Sequence record: OQ703618.1
DNA from: Escherichia phage GADS24
Reading direction: 5' to 3' (one strand)
Length of the DNA: 64,000 bases
The notes below the pieces were generated by a model. The model was not told where the DNA came from. It saw only the letters and a program-made list of their open reading frames with translations, and made no database searches. Within the stretch, counting starts at the first letter, position 1, and each line of letters begins with the position of its first letter. A program made the position numbers and the translations under genes. Shown here piece by piece: positions 7,112 to 63,670 of the stretch.

Positions 7112-7558
7112 TTAGTAACTCTGCAGAATGAATTTGAAATTATCTGCCAGAAGACGGTTCATTTCAGTGAGTGTTTGATATTCTGATGTATGATTGCGAG
7201 TGAATGCCAGAGCCAATTGTCCTTTACCATAACCAGTGGTCAGAGGTTTCATGTTCTTAGCTGCAACAAAGATTACATCATATTCAATATTGTTAGTGCC
7301 CATGGTACGGGCTAGTTGCGAACGGCCTTGACGAATGTGAGAAAGAATTGCATCCAACCCTTGTTTAGAACGTTGACGTCCTACAAAGAATCGTGCTGCA
7401 ACTTGACGCCAATCAGATGAACCTTTAACAAAGAAGTAAAAACCTTCACGAGAACGAAACTCTTTAGAAACTTCAGAACCGTACTCGCCATTACGAACTA
7501 CTGCAACAACTTCACCGCCAACTGCCAGAAGGTCTTTACGAGTTAAATATTTGGACAT
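7112..7558 (-). CDS. ndd: Nucleoid disruption protein Ndd
   Basis: 148 aa; [65 protein letters not shown] matches recalled T4 Ndd. Confidence 0.8.
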
Positions 7559-7592
7559 GCTAATTTCCTCAATTGATTAATGTTTTTGTAAT

Positions 7593-7633
7593 CCATGAGA
7601 GCATTATACTCTGCTCTCAAGAGTTTGTACAAT
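7593..7633 (-). promoter_or_regulatory. Early promoter cassette for ndd (near-duplicate of cassette at 52499)
   Basis: Minus strand TTGTACA-AACTCTTGAGAGCAGAG-TATAAT-GCTCTCA. Confidence 0.55.
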
Positions 7634-7634
7634 T

Positions 7635-7835
7635 TTATTCGGCTATATCAGAACGTTCAAAAAGCTCTTCAACAGTTAAACATTCAGTGTCATCTTCAAT
7701 AAAGAATCGAGTCCAACACGTTGGGGCGATACAGTTATGAGTTTGTCCGGCTATAGAAGCTACACGAATAAGCTGTTGGCCATTATTCAGGACAAATTTT
7801 TCGCCAATTTCAACATCTTTAAAAAGCTTAGCCAT
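7635..7835 (-). CDS. Hypothetical protein (66 aa)
   Basis: Minus-strand ORF preceded by an early-promoter cassette. Confidence 0.5.
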   Translation of the reverse strand: MAKLFKDVEIGEKFVLNNGQQLIRVASIAGQTHNCIAPTCWTRFFIEDDTECLTVEELFERSDIAE

Positions 7836-17558: not shown

Positions 17559-17571
17559 ATTATTCTCCTCT

Positions 17572-17612
17572 GGTTGATATGGTTATAATATCAAAACCAG
17601 AGGAGAAGTAAA
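17572..17612 (-). promoter_or_regulatory. Early promoter cassette
   Basis: Minus strand GTTTAC-17 nt-TATTAT upstream of SD AGAGGAGAA. Confidence 0.45.
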
Positions 17613-17617
17613 CAACT

Positions 17618-18037
17618 TTATGCAAAAGCAGCTGGGCTATATTTTTTAATTTGGAATTCAGGAACTACCATGAACTGTCCAGCGAAAACGATGTTATAAA
17701 GCTTGACACCATCTTCTACCCAACGGTCGCTAATAAATCCAGCGATTTGCTTAGTTTTCCACGGCGTTCCATCAGTTGCCGCAGCAATAGTGAATTCATG
17801 GTCTTTTTCAACAGAAACTGATCTGCATAGTCCCCATTTGAACGCTTTTTCTTCTGGTTCAATGAATTGGCTTTTAACGTAGCCAATATTACCATTAGCA
17901 TCACGAACTTTAACTTGGTTACGGCCAAAAACCGGATCACTCACAGAAAGAACTTCAACCAACTTCCCGGCAACTTTAGAGCGAGAAGCAACAGATACAT
18001 ATACGTAATCACCTGTAGAGAGATTTACAATATTCAT
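17618..18037 (-). CDS. Paralog family member A (139 aa), unknown function
   Basis: Shares N-terminal ASRSKxAGxLVEV and C-terminal FISDxWVEDGxKLYNIVFxGxFxVV motifs with the two adjacent ORFs. Confidence 0.55.
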   Translation of the reverse strand: MNIVNLSTGDYVYVSVASRSKVAGKLVEVLSVSDPVFGRNQVKVRDANGNIGYVKSQFIEPEEKAFKWGLCRSVSVEKDHEFTIAAATDGTPWKTKQIAGFISDRWVEDGVKLYNIVFAGQFMVVPEFQIKKYSPAAFA

Positions 18038-18544: not shown

Positions 18545-18561
18545 ATTTTTTCTCTCTTTGT

Positions 18562-18604
18562 TTAAGTTGAATTCATTATACTCCATCCATCCTTGGATGT
18601 ACAA
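18562..18604 (-). promoter_or_regulatory. Early promoter cassette (CCAAGGATGG spacer family)
   Basis: Minus strand TTGTAC-ATCCAAGGATGGATGGAG-TATAAT. Confidence 0.5.
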
Positions 18605-18606
18605 CA

Positions 18607-19101
18607 TTAATTTAGAATATTAACTACTGCACTACGTGGAACCACACTAAAGTCACCGGCATGAACAACGTTCAGAAGTTCAACCCCATCTTCAATCCAC
18701 TGGTCAGTTACCCAGCCACTTACCGGTCCAGCGAATGGTCGACGAATTGAAACTGCTTTACACAACAAGTCTGTAGGCTCAATAGGCTTAATCAGAGTAC
18801 CGTACATACAAGCGATATCCATATCAAAGTGGAGACCATCTTTAACAGGTGCTTCTTCAATCAACAGTTCAAAGTCAGTGCTTGGAATGGCGGTAGTAGA
18901 AATTGTACCGTGTGAATTTTTAATTTCTAAGAATAACCAAGGGCCTTCAGCTTGTTTGATGAAGTTAACAATAGTGAAACTATTACCTTGAGTGGCACCT
19001 AAAATTTCACAAAACTTTTCATAAGCTCGCACTGAAGCACCGTACCAGTTGATTTGTTTTTCGTCTTTCAGGATGTAAGTAGCCGTAGTATTGATATTCA
19101 T
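18607..19101 (-). CDS. Paralog family member C (164 aa)
   Basis: C-terminal WIEDGVELLNVVHAGDFSVVP motif shared with members A and B; own promoter cassette. Confidence 0.55.
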   Translation of the reverse strand: MNINTTATYILKDEKQINWYGASVRAYEKFCEILGATQGNSFTIVNFIKQAEGPWLFLEIKNSHGTISTTAIPSTDFELLIEEAPVKDGLHFDMDIACMYGTLIKPIEPTDLLCKAVSIRRPFAGPVSGWVTDQWIEDGVELLNVVHAGDFSVVPRSAVVNILN

Positions 19102-19119
19102 AATGTTTTTCCTGTTTGG

Positions 19120-19162
19120 TTAAGATAGAAAGATTATACTCCAACCATCCTTGGTTGTAAAC
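19120..19162 (-). promoter_or_regulatory. Early promoter cassette (CCAAGGATGG spacer family)
   Basis: Minus strand GTTTAC-AACCAAGGATGGTTGGAG-TATAAT-CTTTCTATC. Confidence 0.55.
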
Positions 19163-19167
19163 TGATT

Positions 19168-19845
19168 TTATCGCTGTTTTACACTTAACGGGTCAGGATT
19201 CTCAGGGACATCTTCAAGGCCAAGCGCATAACGCTGAGCATATTTTAACATCAAAATATCTTTAGCACAATCATGAATACTATCATGGGCAACGAATCCT
19301 TTTAGCGTACCCATCGGTAATGGACACATACTTAATCCTCGTGTCAACGAGTAAGCTTCGATTGCCGTACGAATATCGCGTTGAGCCCAGAATTTAACCG
19401 GTTCTAATTTATCGGTATCAATCTCTGGTTCAAGAACACCTTCATCACGATAGAGGTCACGAATCAAATCGACCAATATCGGGAAGTCAAAGCTCATACC
19501 ACGGCACCACATCTGTGATTTCCATTGGTCAACTTTATTAGCTCGGCAATAATCTAAAAAGATTTTAATGCCTTCAAGCGTAGTGACATCGTCTTCAGAC
19601 GGAGCTAGGTTTTTACGTGCTTCTGCTGATTGTTCTTTCCACCATTTCATAGTGGATTTAGCGAAAACTCGCTTCCCTTTCTGAGAAGCTAAATTAAATT
19701 TAATTCGCTTACCTCGTTGAACAAGTTCTTCAAATGATTCAACAACTTCAGGGTCGGAATTATATGCAATAACCGCAAGGTCAATAACAGCCGCTTTTGA
19801 TGTATTGCCGAATGTTTCAAAATCTATAATAACATCAGTGCTCAT
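19168..19845 (-). CDS. dexA: Exonuclease A (DexA), DnaQ-like 3'-5' exonuclease
   Basis: 225 aa (T4 DexA 227 aa); N-terminal IIDFETFG exonuclease motif; adjacent to dda. Confidence 0.8.
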   Translation of the reverse strand: MSTDVIIDFETFGNTSKAAVIDLAVIAYNSDPEVVESFEELVQRGKRIKFNLASQKGKRVFAKSTMKWWKEQSAEARKNLAPSEDDVTTLEGIKIFLDYCRANKVDQWKSQMWCRGMSFDFPILVDLIRDLYRDEGVLEPEIDTDKLEPVKFWAQRDIRTAIEAYSLTRGLSMCPLPMGTLKGFVAHDSIHDCAKDILMLKYAQRYALGLEDVPENPDPLSVKQR

Positions 19846-30509: not shown

Positions 30510-30523
30510 TTTGTTCTCCAGTA

Positions 30524-30564
30524 GTTGATAAGTCTATAATAACACAACTACTGGAGAAGTAAAC
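30524..30564 (-). promoter_or_regulatory. Early promoter cassette
   Basis: Minus strand GTTTAC-17 nt-TATTAT-AGACTTATCAAC. Confidence 0.45.
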
Positions 30565-30939
30565 TTAAAAACGTAATTTAGATACATCTACGTTGATTTC
30601 GCTTTGGTTTGCGTCGTATGCAATTAAACGAACCGCTTTAGATGGGTCATTCAATGCATAGAAATGATGGAACATTGCTCGAACGATATCACCATTTACG
30701 AGTTCTACCTGGATAGGAGAACCTTTTTCGAGTTGGAAATGTTCATAAGCTTTGATGGTTCGCAGATAATCAAGTTTTTGATTTCCGGCTCCAACAATTT
30801 GTACGATACGTTTGCCCATGTTTTCCATACGAGATACAATAGTTTTAGGAGCAAGAATAACGTAGGTTGCCAGTGGAGAAACTACTTCAACAGTTGTGTT
30901 TTCGGTGATTGCAGTAAAAATTGCTTGAGACATATTCAT
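30565..30939 (-). CDS. Hypothetical protein (124 aa)
   Basis: Minus-strand ORF with SD AAGAGGAAAAC. Confidence 0.5.
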   Translation of the reverse strand: MNMSQAIFTAITENTTVEVVSPLATYVILAPKTIVSRMENMGKRIVQIVGAGNQKLDYLRTIKAYEHFQLEKGSPIQVELVNGDIVRAMFHHFYALNDPSKAVRLIAYDANQSEINVDVSKLRF

Positions 30940-51917: not shown

Positions 51918-52141
51918 TCTAGTTCCTTTGCTGCTTCAAGAGCAGCATCCAGCGAATCAAATTGGTCAACGAAATCAATATTCAATGCATCGTCAACCGT
52001 AGCATATAACCACCATTGTTTGAATTCATATTCTAGGATAAATCCAGGCCCTTCAATCTGAGGAAGACCTAGACTATTTGTACCAACTTCGTAACCAGCT
52101 AGACGCAAGTCATTAATCAAAGTTTCTGTTAATACGCTCAT
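51914..52141 (-). CDS. Hypothetical acidic protein (75 aa)
   Basis: Minus-strand ORF with ATGA overlap. Confidence 0.5.
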   Translation of the reverse strand: MSVLTETLINDLRLAGYEVGTNSLGLPQIEGPGFILEYEFKQWWLYATVDDALNIDFVDQFDSLDAALEAAKELE

Positions 52142-52469
52142 TTTACCGCCTTAACAATTTTCAGATCAACGAATTTTTTCTTACGTTGATTTTTCATACG
52201 ACGGATAGTCTTTTCAGAGATTTCATGTTTCTGATAAGCTTTAGATTCAACACCAAATGCAGCAACGTCAAATTCAGAAAGAATATATTGTACTAGAATT
52301 TCACGAATAGAATTACGTCCAATTTTCTGGTCGTGTTTTTGCATGATTTCATAAAGACGGAATTCCCACGCATCAAGAACTTGAGGAGTAACAATATTGC
52401 CGGATTCCAGAAGAGCAACAACTTTATCGAAAGCGAAAGAATTAACTACGTTTTTGATTTTAGTAGACA
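52138..52469 (-). CDS. Hypothetical protein (about 110 aa)
   Basis: Trimmed to MSTKIKN with SD GAGGAAAATAAT; promoter cassette upstream. Confidence 0.5.
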
Positions 52470-52498
52470 TATTATTTTCCTCGGTTATTTTATTATCC

Positions 52499-52538
52499 AA
52501 TGAGAGCATTATACTCCGCTCTCAAGAGTTTGTACACT
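52499..52538 (-). promoter_or_regulatory. Early promoter cassette (near-duplicate of cassette at 7593)
   Basis: Minus strand TGTACA-AACTCTTGAGAGCGGAG-TATAAT-GCTCTCA. Confidence 0.5.
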
Positions 52539-52776
52539 ATTTTTTAAGCATGAAAAGTAAGTAATTTGTATCACGTGGAGTAATATCAACACCCATATCA
52601 AAGATGCCTTTATAGATTGGGTATTTGTTTTCGGTTGTATCGAAGCTGAAACTATTTCCATCACAACTAACAGTAATAGCATCTGTTAAAATGTCATACT
52701 CAATCCTAACAATTGAATCCCCAATTTTAACGTCGAGGTGTTTTTTGAATTTGATAAAATCTAACTCTTGGGCCAT
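52537..52776 (-). CDS. Hypothetical protein (79 aa)
   Basis: Minus-strand ORF. Confidence 0.5.
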   Translation of the reverse strand: MAQELDFIKFKKHLDVKIGDSIVRIEYDILTDAITVSCDGNSFSFDTTENKYPIYKGIFDMGVDITPRDTNYLLFMLKK

Positions 52777-60699: not shown

Positions 60700-60743
60700 G
60701 TTAAGATAGAAAGATTATACTCCAACCGTCCTTGGTTGTAAAC
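60700..60743 (-). promoter_or_regulatory. Early promoter cassette (CCAAGGACGG spacer family)
   Basis: Minus strand GTTTAC-AACCAAGGACGGTTGGAG-TATAAT-CTTTCTATC. Confidence 0.5.
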
Positions 60744-60747
60744 TGAT

Positions 60748-61683
60748 TTATGGTTTTAATGCATTCATTGCGTTAAAAAGTTTAGAGTACTGCAACTGGA
60801 GCTTGGTAACTACTTGTTGAGCATCACGAAGCTTAGCTTGTGCTTTATCAAGTTCAACAGACAGTTGGTCCATAGTGCCCTTGATTTGATTATAATAGTA
60901 ATCTTCGGCAGGAAGAAGACCATTAGATATTTCCAGTTTAGTCGACGGTGAAGTGTATATAGATGGAGCAGTAGAATATGCACCTAGAACTTCAGCATTG
61001 CCAATTGGGGTTGCAGTAATTGACGCTTCGAACGTCGCATTTTCCTTTTTAAGATTTTGATAGTATTCAGAGTCTTTGTGCCACCATGGCGCAGGAACCT
61101 TTTTACCAATAGATACACGAGCCTGGATAGCGATATGGCCCTTATTCTTGATAGGGTTGATAATATTAAGCTCGCGAGAATAAATTGCTTTAATCTGGTG
61201 GATATTATCACCTAACACTTCCAACGCTTGGTGGAATACACGAGCAACGTTATCATTCTTAGGTTTATACGTAAGAGTGAATTCGTTCTCACTGATAACC
61301 ATAATTTCCAACTTATCGTAAGTATATTTCAAATGTTTCATGTTAATTGCTTGAGGACGAATACGAGAAGCAATGGCCATCAGATTGTTAAGGTTATTCC
61401 GGAACTGCTTAGCGAAATATTGTCCTTCACCACCAATACAAAAATTACGAAGTTTCTGTTTAGCTAATAAACGGCTGAACTCACCATTTTTAATGAACTC
61501 TTTAACGGGTGTGTTAGTAACGCATTCAAATTGAGTAAACTTACGAGAAGTAATCCCATAATATGAACAGACTTCCTCAATCTCTTCAGGAGTCTTTACA
61601 GGCATACGGATAGGATTAGGTCCTGGAGTATATGCGTTCGAGGTAAATTCTTTGATAAGTTCTCTACGTGTAATAAAAGCCAT
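60748..61683 (-). CDS. Hypothetical protein (311 aa) with C-terminal coiled coil
   Basis: Long ORF with own promoter cassette; C-terminal LDKAQAKLRDAQQVVTKLQLQYSKL. Confidence 0.6.
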   Translation of the reverse strand: MAFITRRELIKEFTSNAYTPGPNPIRMPVKTPEEIEEVCSYYGITSRKFTQFECVTNTPVKEFIKNGEFSRLLAKQKLRNFCIGGEGQYFAKQFRNNLNNLMAIASRIRPQAINMKHLKYTYDKLEIMVISENEFTLTYKPKNDNVARVFHQALEVLGDNIHQIKAIYSRELNIINPIKNKGHIAIQARVSIGKKVPAPWWHKDSEYYQNLKKENATFEASITATPIGNAEVLGAYSTAPSIYTSPSTKLEISNGLLPAEDYYYNQIKGTMDQLSVELDKAQAKLRDAQQVVTKLQLQYSKLFNAMNALKP

Positions 61684-61697
61684 TTTATATTCCTCGT

Positions 61698-61738
61698 GTT
61701 GAAAAATTTATTATACTCCAACCGTCCTTGGTTGTACA
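61698..61738 (-). promoter_or_regulatory. Early promoter cassette (CCAAGGACGG spacer family)
   Basis: Minus strand TGTACA-ACCAAGGACGGTTGGAG-TATAAT. Confidence 0.5.
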
Positions 61739-62734
61739 TCATTCCTTAAGAAGTTTTACTACTTGAATAAGATTAGCTCGTTCTGTTTTATTTTTACCGT
61801 TTAAGCCTGCTAATCGTGAGATTTCATCGTCAGTCTGTTGAATAGTTACATTAAGTTCGTTAATCAAAGCTTCAAAGTATTTGATTTGCTCAGCATGTTT
61901 TGATTCAAATTTCTGAACCGGAATAACGTCTTGGTTCAGTTCATCAATAAGGTCTTTAAGAGCATCTTCTTGGTTGATATCATATTCAACTTCTTTTATT
62001 TCTTCAACGAGCTCGTCTTTATATCTAACGTCTTTTAGTCCTGGAGCTGGTCCTGAAATCTCTTCTTTAAGAGTACAAACATATACATTACGGTATCTAA
62101 TGCCGTCTCGCTTGATATCAACTTCGTCAATAAATCCACAATGTTTAAGTCCAGAGCCGATTATGTCAAAATATCCTTGACGTTGTCCTTCAAACGTTAC
62201 ACGAACTACTAAGACAGTTTTGCCACCAACCTTTTGAAGCTCACATTTATAAAAGTCTGTTGAACCTGAATAACGCGGATGAGTTTTAAAGTTCATCTGA
62301 CGATCTAGGCCCATTTGTAAGCGTGCTGATACGGCCATAAAACGTGTTTGGTTCTCGTTAAGATGAGCAACAATCCGTTTCAAAGGCATTTTACCCTGTT
62401 CACGACCGAACAAATCAGTACGTCCTAGATTACGCAGAATGTTGTTAGAGTTAATCATCGACAGAACGTTAAGTTTATTCAGCGCGCTGAAGATTCCATC
62501 GGCCATTGATTTTCCGTAACCTTTACACGCTTTAATAAGCGCTCGCGGGAGATTAGTATAGATTTCAGACGGCATATGAAAATCAAATTTACTAGTCAGT
62601 AATTGATGAACTTGGATAGCAATTTGCTCATAATTAAGTGCTCTGCGATCGTTATGGTCTTTAAACCACACTTTAATCTGTGAAGCACATAAACCGTTAA
62701 TTTCATGTTTTACCGCATCAGATGTAATGCTCAT
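61739..62734 (-). CDS. Hypothetical protein (331 aa) with C-terminal coiled coil
   Basis: Long ORF with own promoter-like element; acidic/coiled C-terminus. Confidence 0.6.
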   Translation of the reverse strand: MSITSDAVKHEINGLCASQIKVWFKDHNDRRALNYEQIAIQVHQLLTSKFDFHMPSEIYTNLPRALIKACKGYGKSMADGIFSALNKLNVLSMINSNNILRNLGRTDLFGREQGKMPLKRIVAHLNENQTRFMAVSARLQMGLDRQMNFKTHPRYSGSTDFYKCELQKVGGKTVLVVRVTFEGQRQGYFDIIGSGLKHCGFIDEVDIKRDGIRYRNVYVCTLKEEISGPAPGLKDVRYKDELVEEIKEVEYDINQEDALKDLIDELNQDVIPVQKFESKHAEQIKYFEALINELNVTIQQTDDEISRLAGLNGKNKTERANLIQVVKLLKE

Positions 62735-63324: not shown

Positions 63325-63340
63325 GTTTTACCTCCAGTAG

Positions 63341-63380
63341 TTGATAGGTCTATAATAACATAACCATAGACCTTGTAAAC
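63341..63380 (-). promoter_or_regulatory. Early promoter/stem-loop cassette
   Basis: Minus strand GTTTAC-AAGGTCTATGGTTATGT-TATTAT-AGACCTATCAA. Confidence 0.5.
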
Positions 63381-63382
63381 AA

Positions 63383-63670
63383 CTAAAAGAAACTTTTTTC
63401 GGTATTTTTTCCACTGAACCAAACCGACTTCGGGACTTTCTGTAATTTTTCGGATTTAAGTTTCTCTTCCTGTTCTTTCTTATATGCATCCTTGTCGTAC
63501 TGGAACAACTCTAGGGCATTCTTTTGTAGACGGTCTAAGGTAATTAAGGCTTTAGTTTTTCCTTTCAAGGAAGAGTCCTGGCGAACCTCCTCGCTATATT
63601 GCATTGTAGAACTAACCATACGATGAGCATACAGTTCGACTGCGGCTTTAATTTTTTGCATAAAATCCAT
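63383..63670 (-). CDS. Hypothetical protein (95 aa)
   Basis: Minus-strand ORF. Confidence 0.45.
   Translation of the reverse strand: MDFMQKIKAAVELYAHRMVSSTMQYSEEVRQDSSLKGKTKALITLDRLQKNALELFQYDKDAYKKEQEEKLKSEKLQKVPKSVWFSGKNTEKSFF

Follow-up and report, generated by a model that had tools for sequence, protein, structure and literature searches.

A near-identical early-promoter cassette with the -10 hexamer inside an inverted repeat, upstream of ndd and of a gene 55.2 homologue in an RB69-group phage

Why are two intergenic regions of one phage genome nearly identical although they lie about 45 kb apart, and why is the -10 hexamer of a promoter enclosed in an inverted repeat? These questions are raised by a short element upstream of the gene ndd in Escherichia phage GADS24 (sequence record OQ703618.1), which a first-pass annotation had described as a 45 bp promoter cassette with a second copy upstream of a hypothetical gene. 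The analysis covered a stretch of 64,000 nucleotides of this phage, which is called the window in the following. The window is 94-98% identical to Mosigvirus genomes (the RB69/JS09/HX01 group of T-even phages). The gene order is distal tail-fibre gene, gene 52, ndd, denB, rIIB/A, 39, 43, and 55, towards the tk end of the map, and the early genes are located on the minus strand. In the match to the distal long-tail-fibre gene of the close relative ST0, tandem 27-nt repeats (CATNCTCATACNGTNGGTATTGG...) were observed at positions 803-1147 of the window on the plus strand; in the reading frame that begins with CAT, their translation would be a series of His-x-His motifs.

Two copies of an early promoter

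The organization is the same at both sites. On the gene strand, the stop codon of the upstream open reading frame is followed by TGTACA, 17 nt, TATAAT, a Shine-Dalgarno (SD) sequence, and an ATG. At site A, the stop codon TAA (7635..7637, minus strand) belongs to an ndd.1-like reading frame (7635-7835), and it lies 3 nt before the -35 hexamer. The orthologue of this reading frame is annotated as ndd.1 in the RB69 record. The downstream unit (7112..7570, minus strand) consists of the SD GAGGAAA (7564-7570) and a coding sequence (7112-7558), whose designation as ndd was confirmed by its match to the Pfam family Phage_T4_Ndd (4e-89). At site B, the stop codon TAG (52537..52539, minus strand) of the upstream reading frame (52537-52776) abuts the -35 hexamer, and the downstream unit (52138..52482, minus strand) consists of the SD GAGGAAAA (52475-52482) and the coding sequence 52138-52470. 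A gene is thus present also downstream of site B, as had been noted, but it is more than a hypothetical gene: it encodes a protein of 110 aa (DUF7570) with 75% amino acid identity to T4 gp55.2.

The start codon of the 55.2 homologue deserves a remark. The -10 hexamer of site B is part of the sequence TATAATG and thereby creates an in-frame ATG (window 52468-52509, minus strand), and RefSeq records (e.g., HX01 gp119) let the gene start at this ATG, 13 codons too early. The alignment with T4 gp55.2 and the position of the SD GAGGAAAA place the true start at the ATG at 52468-52470.

At both sites the hexamers form a T4-type sigma-70 early promoter, TGTACA-N17-TATAAT, which agrees with the consensus at 10 of 12 positions and has a 17-nt spacer, and thus the promoter assignment was supported. 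The -35 hexamer TGTACA is located at 7626..7631 in site A and at 52531..52536 in site B, and the -10 hexamer TATAAT at 7603..7608 and 52508..52513, respectively (all on the minus strand; the plus strand reads ATTATA at the latter two positions). From the usual distance of 7 nt to the -10 hexamer, transcription is predicted to start at about position 7596 (an A) in site A and at about position 52501 in site B. The SD and the ATG follow 26-38 nt after these predicted start sites. A homologous T4-type sequence carries a promoter annotation in a Tequatrovirus record, and the motB promoter of T4 has been detected by primer extension (PMC1702504).

The alignment of site A (7592-7631) with site B (52496-52536) spans 40 nt of the former and 41 nt of the latter, which differ by one substitution and a 1-nt indel, and thus the length of the repeat is nearer to 40 bp than to the 45 bp that had been reported. 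Both copies have the same orientation, and they are spaced 44,905 bp apart (repeat family D8). In the core of 36 nt (7596-7631 versus 52501-52536) there is one mismatch, a T/C exchange in the loop of the inverted repeat, which is the sole substitution between the copies. The ATCCA(A) at the end of the element is an extension beyond this core and is included in the 40/41-nt match. A match like the core was not found in any of 100 dinucleotide-preserving shuffles of the window, in line with the claim of a near-identical, distant duplicate. When 350 nt of flanking sequence were included in the pairwise alignment, the likeness was confined to the cassette and ended at its edges, save for the generic SD/ATG region.

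The likeness is also not limited to generic -35 and -10 hexamers. As a comparison set, 46 T4-type early promoters were catalogued in the complete genome of ST0. Pairs of these promoters share a median of 18 of the 36 core positions, and the 95th percentile is 27, whereas the members of the site A/B family make up the three best pairs, with 34-35 of 36 positions. Outside the hexamers, 23-24 of 24 positions are identical within the family, compared to a median of 10 for the ST0 promoters.

A hairpin around the -10 hexamer

The embedding of the -10 hexamer in an inverted repeat TGAGAGC..GCTCTCA, which had been recognized from the start, was verified for both sites. On the gene strand, the 5' arm TGAGAGC is located at 7613..7619 in site A and at 52518..52524 in site B, and thus lies within the promoter spacer. 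The 3' arm GCTCTCA is located at 7596..7602 and 52501..52507 (minus strand in all cases), covers the region from -6 to +1, and ends at the predicted start sites. The stem comprises 7-8 bp, the loop with the -10 hexamer has 10 nt at both sites, or 8 nt if an A-U closing pair forms, and the whole repeat extends from about -25 to +1. The predicted folding energies of the hairpins are -12.6 and -11.7 kcal/mol (z = -4.2). In RNAs started at the two promoters themselves, the leader is predicted to be unstructured (-3.3 and -1.3 kcal/mol, z > 0). An outer helix UUGUA/UACAA in the fold of site A was dropped, because it is absent at site B.

Whether the arms are kept complementary in other phages was analyzed with IMG/VR, which was scanned with the pattern ACAAACTCT-N7-AGAGTATAAT. 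In this pattern the 5' arm is free and the 3' arm is absent. The scan yielded 38 matches, and the arms were complementary in all 32 matches from T-even-like contigs and in none of the six matches from unrelated contigs. The covariation alignment contained 20 distinct sequences, the rows of which are phylogenetically related; spacer and loop were set by the search pattern, and their invariance in the alignment is by construction. The arm cells were paired in 98.6% of the cases, versus 34-51% when the partner columns were slid. Compensatory changes were present in four of the seven stem pairs, and two pairs were invariant. The covariation score was 0.51 compared to 0.28 in shuffles, and it was reached by none of 500 shuffles. 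On the sense strand, 17 of the non-Watson-Crick stem cells were G.U and two were C.A. A G.U on the sense strand corresponds to an A.C on the other strand, and thus the exceptions point to a hairpin of the sense-strand RNA. An alternative helix ACUCU/AGAGU, the bases of which are fixed by the search pattern, could replace the pairing of the main stem.

The arrangement is not restricted to this family. A perfect helix of at least 7 bp that spans the -10 hexamer was found in 15 of the 46 early promoters of ST0, compared to 4.6 expected from swapping arms between promoters, and the number of 15 was reached in none of 20,000 arm-swap permutations. The mean folding z-score of the early promoters was -2.0, versus 0.1 for coding controls. 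Across the genome, a preference of G.T over A.C in the promoter helices was not significant (16 versus 10, p = 0.24), nor was the difference between the sense and the antisense folding energies of the early promoters (p = 0.34). Therefore, the assignment to the RNA strand rests on the alignment of the subfamily and on the UUCG loops of orthologous hairpins, which are described below. Both indicate that the hairpin would be formed as RNA in transcripts that read through from the upstream gene.

Scans for known RNA families and for terminators gave negative results. Rfam had no match at the gathering score in the whole window, and for the region 7500-7700 a search at E <= 10 returned chance-level matches only (E > 1). 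The scan with an intrinsic-terminator consensus called neither of the two sites. The stem is not followed by a U-tract, and the tails read AUGGAUUAC and AUUGGAUAA at the two sites.

Orthologous hairpins, family members, and known counterparts

Orthologous positions were compared in other T-even genera. In T4, both positions that are orthologous to sites A and B have a hairpin and no early promoter. Upstream of T4 ndd the hairpin is GGCCG...CGGCC, followed by UUGGAGUAGAAAAU (L008 3541-3602, T4 ndd.1-ndd). Hairpins without a promoter were found upstream of ndd also in a Karamvirus (GGGCC-UUCG-GGCCC), a Marfavirus (GGGAGC-CUA-GCUCCC), and a Jiaodavirus (GAGGGGC-UUCG-GCCCCUC), and in these three phages an A-rich stretch that contains GGAG or GGAU is located 3-5 nt past the hairpin. 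The JS98-like phage LQ5 has a promoter upstream of ndd, with a different stem, GAGAAUC/GGUUCUC, around the -10 hexamer. Upstream of T4 55.2, a UUCG hairpin with a U-run is followed by GGAUAAUAAAAU (L047 1787-1860, T4 55.3-55.2), and the same sequence is found after the stem of site B.

UUCG tetraloops are a feature of RNA. The hairpins at orthologous positions lack a promoter and some of them have a UUCG loop, and therefore the conserved element is the intercistronic RNA hairpin. Judged from these alignments, the Mosigvirus version is one in which the loop has been expanded to hold a -10 hexamer. The compensatory changes, the G.U exceptions, and the orthologous hairpins without promoter add comparative evidence that the stem of the cassette has been selected as an RNA structure. 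The description as a regulatory module was therefore correct with respect to the promoter, but incomplete, since the module includes also a selected RNA hairpin and a RegB-type site (see below).

The first-pass annotation had treated the cassette as a pair, and the window indeed contains two copies, but ST0 has four. Two of them are the orthologues of sites A and B, the third precedes a gene near pseT, and the fourth lies between the tRNA genes and the internal-protein genes; the latter two are outside the window. Other promoter subfamilies are almost as alike. Further members were found in relatives, i.e., among the 32 matches in T-even-like contigs mentioned above and in T4, where the early promoter of motB has the same spacer and loop, and the stem GGGACC/GGTCCC instead of GAGAGC/GCTCTC, a difference of two compensatory pair changes. 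Among the IMG/VR matches, more than 10 different genes have the cassette in front of them, and one genome contains three different stems. JS98-type phages have the same cassette family in front of their 55.2 homologue, and thus the cassette of site B is orthologous across genera.

A recent duplication of the module had also been proposed. A recent duplication in this phage was ruled out, because RB69 carries the identical site A cassette at ndd, ST0 has both sites, and site A is matched at 99% or more by 144 phage records. The other part of the proposal, copying or recombination of a module, was retained. The arms vary in a compensatory manner between genera and yet are alike within one genome, which argues for copying of the module or gene conversion. 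In addition, a contig and ST0 copy 4 (L037 versus ST0) are 99% identical downstream of the cassette and 95% identical within it, and they are unrelated upstream, so that the breakpoint lies exactly at the cassette edge. The converse pattern was observed for another pair (L015 versus L041), with 87% identity upstream and unrelated sequences downstream. From these patterns we infer that the near-identity of the distant copies results from recombination or gene conversion between short homologous cassettes. For T4, a homology of less than 50 bp is quoted as sufficient for recombination. Between sites A and B, a crossover would remove about 45 kb with the replication genes, and thus only conversion would be viable there.

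Additional early promoters of the window have features of their own. A second near-identical subfamily on the minus strand was found at 19119-19168 and 60700-60749 (98% identity over 50 nt, 41.6 kb apart) and also at 61696-61745 and 18561-18610. Its spacer contains a small hairpin, (A)ACCA-AGGA-UGGU(U), and its flanks covary from member to member (AUCCA/UGGAU, CACCA/UGGUG, and CCACAA/UUGUGG in ST0). Three further early promoters on the minus strand (30516-30579, 17565-17628, and 63332-63395) have a stem of 11-12 bp in which a CUCC immediately after the -35 hexamer pairs with the GGAG of the SD of the downstream gene. The SD would thus be masked in read-through RNAs and accessible in RNAs that begin at the promoter, as in the T4 genes e, soc, and 49, except that the promoters here are early.

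Cassettes of this kind have been described before. PeSLs, promoter-early stem-loop cassettes of T4-like phages (Arbiol et al. 2010, PMC2839356; Comeau et al. 2014, PMC4122927), are, according to the passages on these cassettes, intergenic elements among small early reading frames that begin with the upstream stop codon in A/T-rich sequence. A sigma-70 early promoter has a stem-loop that lies between the hexamers, overlaps the -10 or the -35 hexamer, or flanks the promoter, and the SD and the ATG follow. The same passages report that each genome has several conserved copies, that genes are replaced at the cassette, and that cassettes recombine into mini-circles. Sites A and B share all of the defining features that can be read from a sequence, and are on this basis PeSL-type cassettes. 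In the cited passages, PeSLs are described for RB49/phi1, T4/PST, and KVP40/nt-1, and not for the RB69 group, and neither covariation of the arms nor a RegB-type site as part of the cassette is mentioned there. The RB49 stems, as described in that text, consist of a G-run and a C-run and are reported to be strong terminators, in contrast to the stem of sites A and B, which lacks a U-tract. Because of this lack and the negative terminator scan, the role of an effective terminator that is claimed for the RB49 PeSLs may not apply to sites A and B.

By sequence, sites A and B fall into the same subfamily as the early promoter of T4 motB: both have the succession GTTTACAAACTCT - 7-nt arm - AGAGTATAAT - complementary arm - (U)GGAG/U plus an A-rich run. 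They differ in the genes served. Here it stands in front of four genes, among them ndd and the 55.2 homologue, whereas the leaders of T4 ndd and 55.2 have the hairpin only. The T4 genes e, soc, 49, and I-TevI (review PMC3014915) resemble the cassette in that a promoter lies inside a hairpin and only read-through RNAs fold it. In these cases the hairpin hides the SD or the AUG and the internal promoter is late, in contrast to sites A and B, where the stem is clear of the SD. With intrinsic terminators the cassette shares a G+C-containing hairpin directly after a stop codon, but it differs from them in the missing U-tract, the loop of 8-10 nt, and the negative consensus scan. Thus, the type of cassette is already described, its T4 motB member has been characterized experimentally, and sites A and B are a clear, if ordinary, case of it. 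What is added here, the covariation of the arms and the connection with a RegB-type site, is modest. A literature search for T4 transcriptome or 3'-end maps yielded nothing usable.

A RegB-type site and the proposed working of the cassette

The target of RegB/S1 has been defined as 11 single-stranded nt with the consensus GGAGRAYARAA (PMC1702504). The mRNA of T4 motB is cut efficiently by RegB at GGAGUAUAAAA (Durand et al. 2006, PMC1702504), which is the sequence after the stem of the motB cassette. Among the intergenic GGAU sequences of T4, RegB is reported to cut just two, including one 5' of orf 55.2. Cleavage at GGAU requires strictly A-rich surroundings, and a C at position 7 was seen in none of the T4 sites that are cut (PMC1702504). 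At site B, the RegB/S1-type 11-mer GGAUAAUAAAA (52488..52498, minus strand) is identical to the 11-mer after the T4 55.2 hairpin. At site A, the 11-mer GGAUUACAAAA (7584..7594, minus strand) is a degenerate fit to the consensus, with a U at position 4 and a C at position 7. It is the weaker candidate, because a C at position 7 is absent from the cleaved T4 sites, and it may not be cut. Both 11-mers start at about +3 in intergenic leaders of early genes that are predicted to be single-stranded. ST0 encodes RegB (PF10715, 3.5e-69; regB is located outside of this window), and matches to the RegB consensus favour the early strand over the opposite one by 12:1 in ST0 and by 5:1 in the window. Overall, the stem of the cassette is followed by a probable cutting site of the RNase RegB.

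A related layout was observed elsewhere in the window. Terminators that consist of a UUCG hairpin and a U-run are present on the minus strand at about 50065 and 15697, in each case followed about 15 nt later by GGAUGAUAGAA, and then by an SD and an ATG. By synteny with ST0, the downstream genes are gene 47 (SbcD-like) and the gene 39 homologue, respectively. GGAUGAUAGAA fits the RegB/S1 consensus, and thus the order of hairpin, RegB-type site, and SD is a recurring intercistronic layout.

On this basis, sites A and B are likely to be compact intergenic expression cassettes that combine a promoter, the -10 hexamer of which lies in the loop of an RNA hairpin, with a RegB-type site and an SD, and the copies of which arise by recombination or conversion. 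Host RNA polymerase would start at the last base of the 3' arm, and therefore the promoter's own mRNA would be without the hairpin. Its leader would be unstructured, with the RegB-type site and the SD exposed. Transcripts that come from the upstream gene would hold both arms and would fold the hairpin directly after the upstream stop codon. There it would mark and protect the 3' end of the upstream message, and it may attenuate read-through. A cut at GG^A just 3' of the hairpin would separate the fates of the upstream and the downstream cistrons, and the upstream message would then end only a few nucleotides past the stem. On such an end 3' exonucleases should act poorly, as expected from their established properties. 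The same cut would start the 5'-to-3' decay of the downstream early mRNA. RegB cuts leave 5'-OH ends, which become targets of RNase G/E once the T4 kinase has phosphorylated them, and the 3' ends that result from RegB cuts are open to exonucleases (review PMC3014915).

The same features can be read in other ways. The hairpin could be mainly a terminator or attenuator of the upstream unit, so that the cassette would be an insulator of terminator and promoter in which RNA processing and stability have no special part. The stem-loop of an RB49 PeSL lowered the expression of a downstream lacZ about as much as the rrnB T1 terminator, as stated in the passages on these cassettes, and the T4 55.3/55.2 junction has a canonical UUCG hairpin and then a U-run. 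At sites A and B, however, the large loop is combined with a sequence that reads ...GCUCUCAUGGAUUAC without a U-tract, the terminator scan was negative, and U-tracts are lacking also after the orthologous ndd hairpins of four other genera. A purely terminating role is rather unlikely, but it is a live minority reading.

Alternatively, the inverted repeat could act as DNA, either as an operator for a dimeric protein or as a structure that can be extruded from the duplex, and could in this way modulate the early promoter or shut it off. The location of the whole repeat inside the promoter and the two invariant stem pairs would fit this idea, and the mechanism by which T4 early promoters are shut off is stated in the literature to be unknown. 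Yet it is the complementarity that is kept and not the sequence, as seen from the four compensatory pairs and from three stems in one genome; the exceptions are G.T on the sense strand and thus A.C mismatches on the other strand; where orthologous positions have no promoter the hairpin persists, in many cases with a UUCG tetraloop of the RNA type; and a stem of 7 bp with a loop of 10 nt would be a poor cruciform. An action at the DNA level is thus regarded as very improbable. Hardly credible is the view that no module and no recombination are involved, i.e., that independent strong promoters became alike by selection for polymerase binding and that the inverted repeat is incidental. T4 early promoters do share an extended consensus beyond the hexamers, and a TGATA...TATCA dyad arises from the consensus alone. 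But this would not account for a non-hexamer identity far above the median of the ST0 promoters, for arms that differ between genera and stay complementary, or for the loss of helices when arms are swapped between promoters.

The expression cassette with its RNA hairpin and RegB-type site is thus the preferred reading. It has an extension, which we consider a long shot: the placement of the -10 hexamer in a hairpin that is formed solely by read-through RNAs could be a deliberate discriminator of the origin of transcripts. If this were true, the same 45 bp would give local and upstream RNAs a different susceptibility to RegB, a different stability of the 3' end, or different polymerase pausing over the promoter. 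In this phage group, about one in three early promoters would be such a discriminator, and the architecture might contribute to the unexplained rapid shut-off or insulation of T-even early transcription units.

The analysis is a dissection at the sequence level of an early-gene control cassette of the RB69 group, and it overturns nothing that is known. It is of use for the annotation of promoters, true start codons, and repeats that can confuse assemblies, and the cassettes could serve as compact, insulated expression modules in phage engineering. Among the T-even genera the intercistronic hairpin is conserved, but the promoter nested in it is present in some and absent from others, and this difference would change which genes are immediate-early. 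Finally, the analysis is of use for understanding how small early genes are swapped among T4-like phages.
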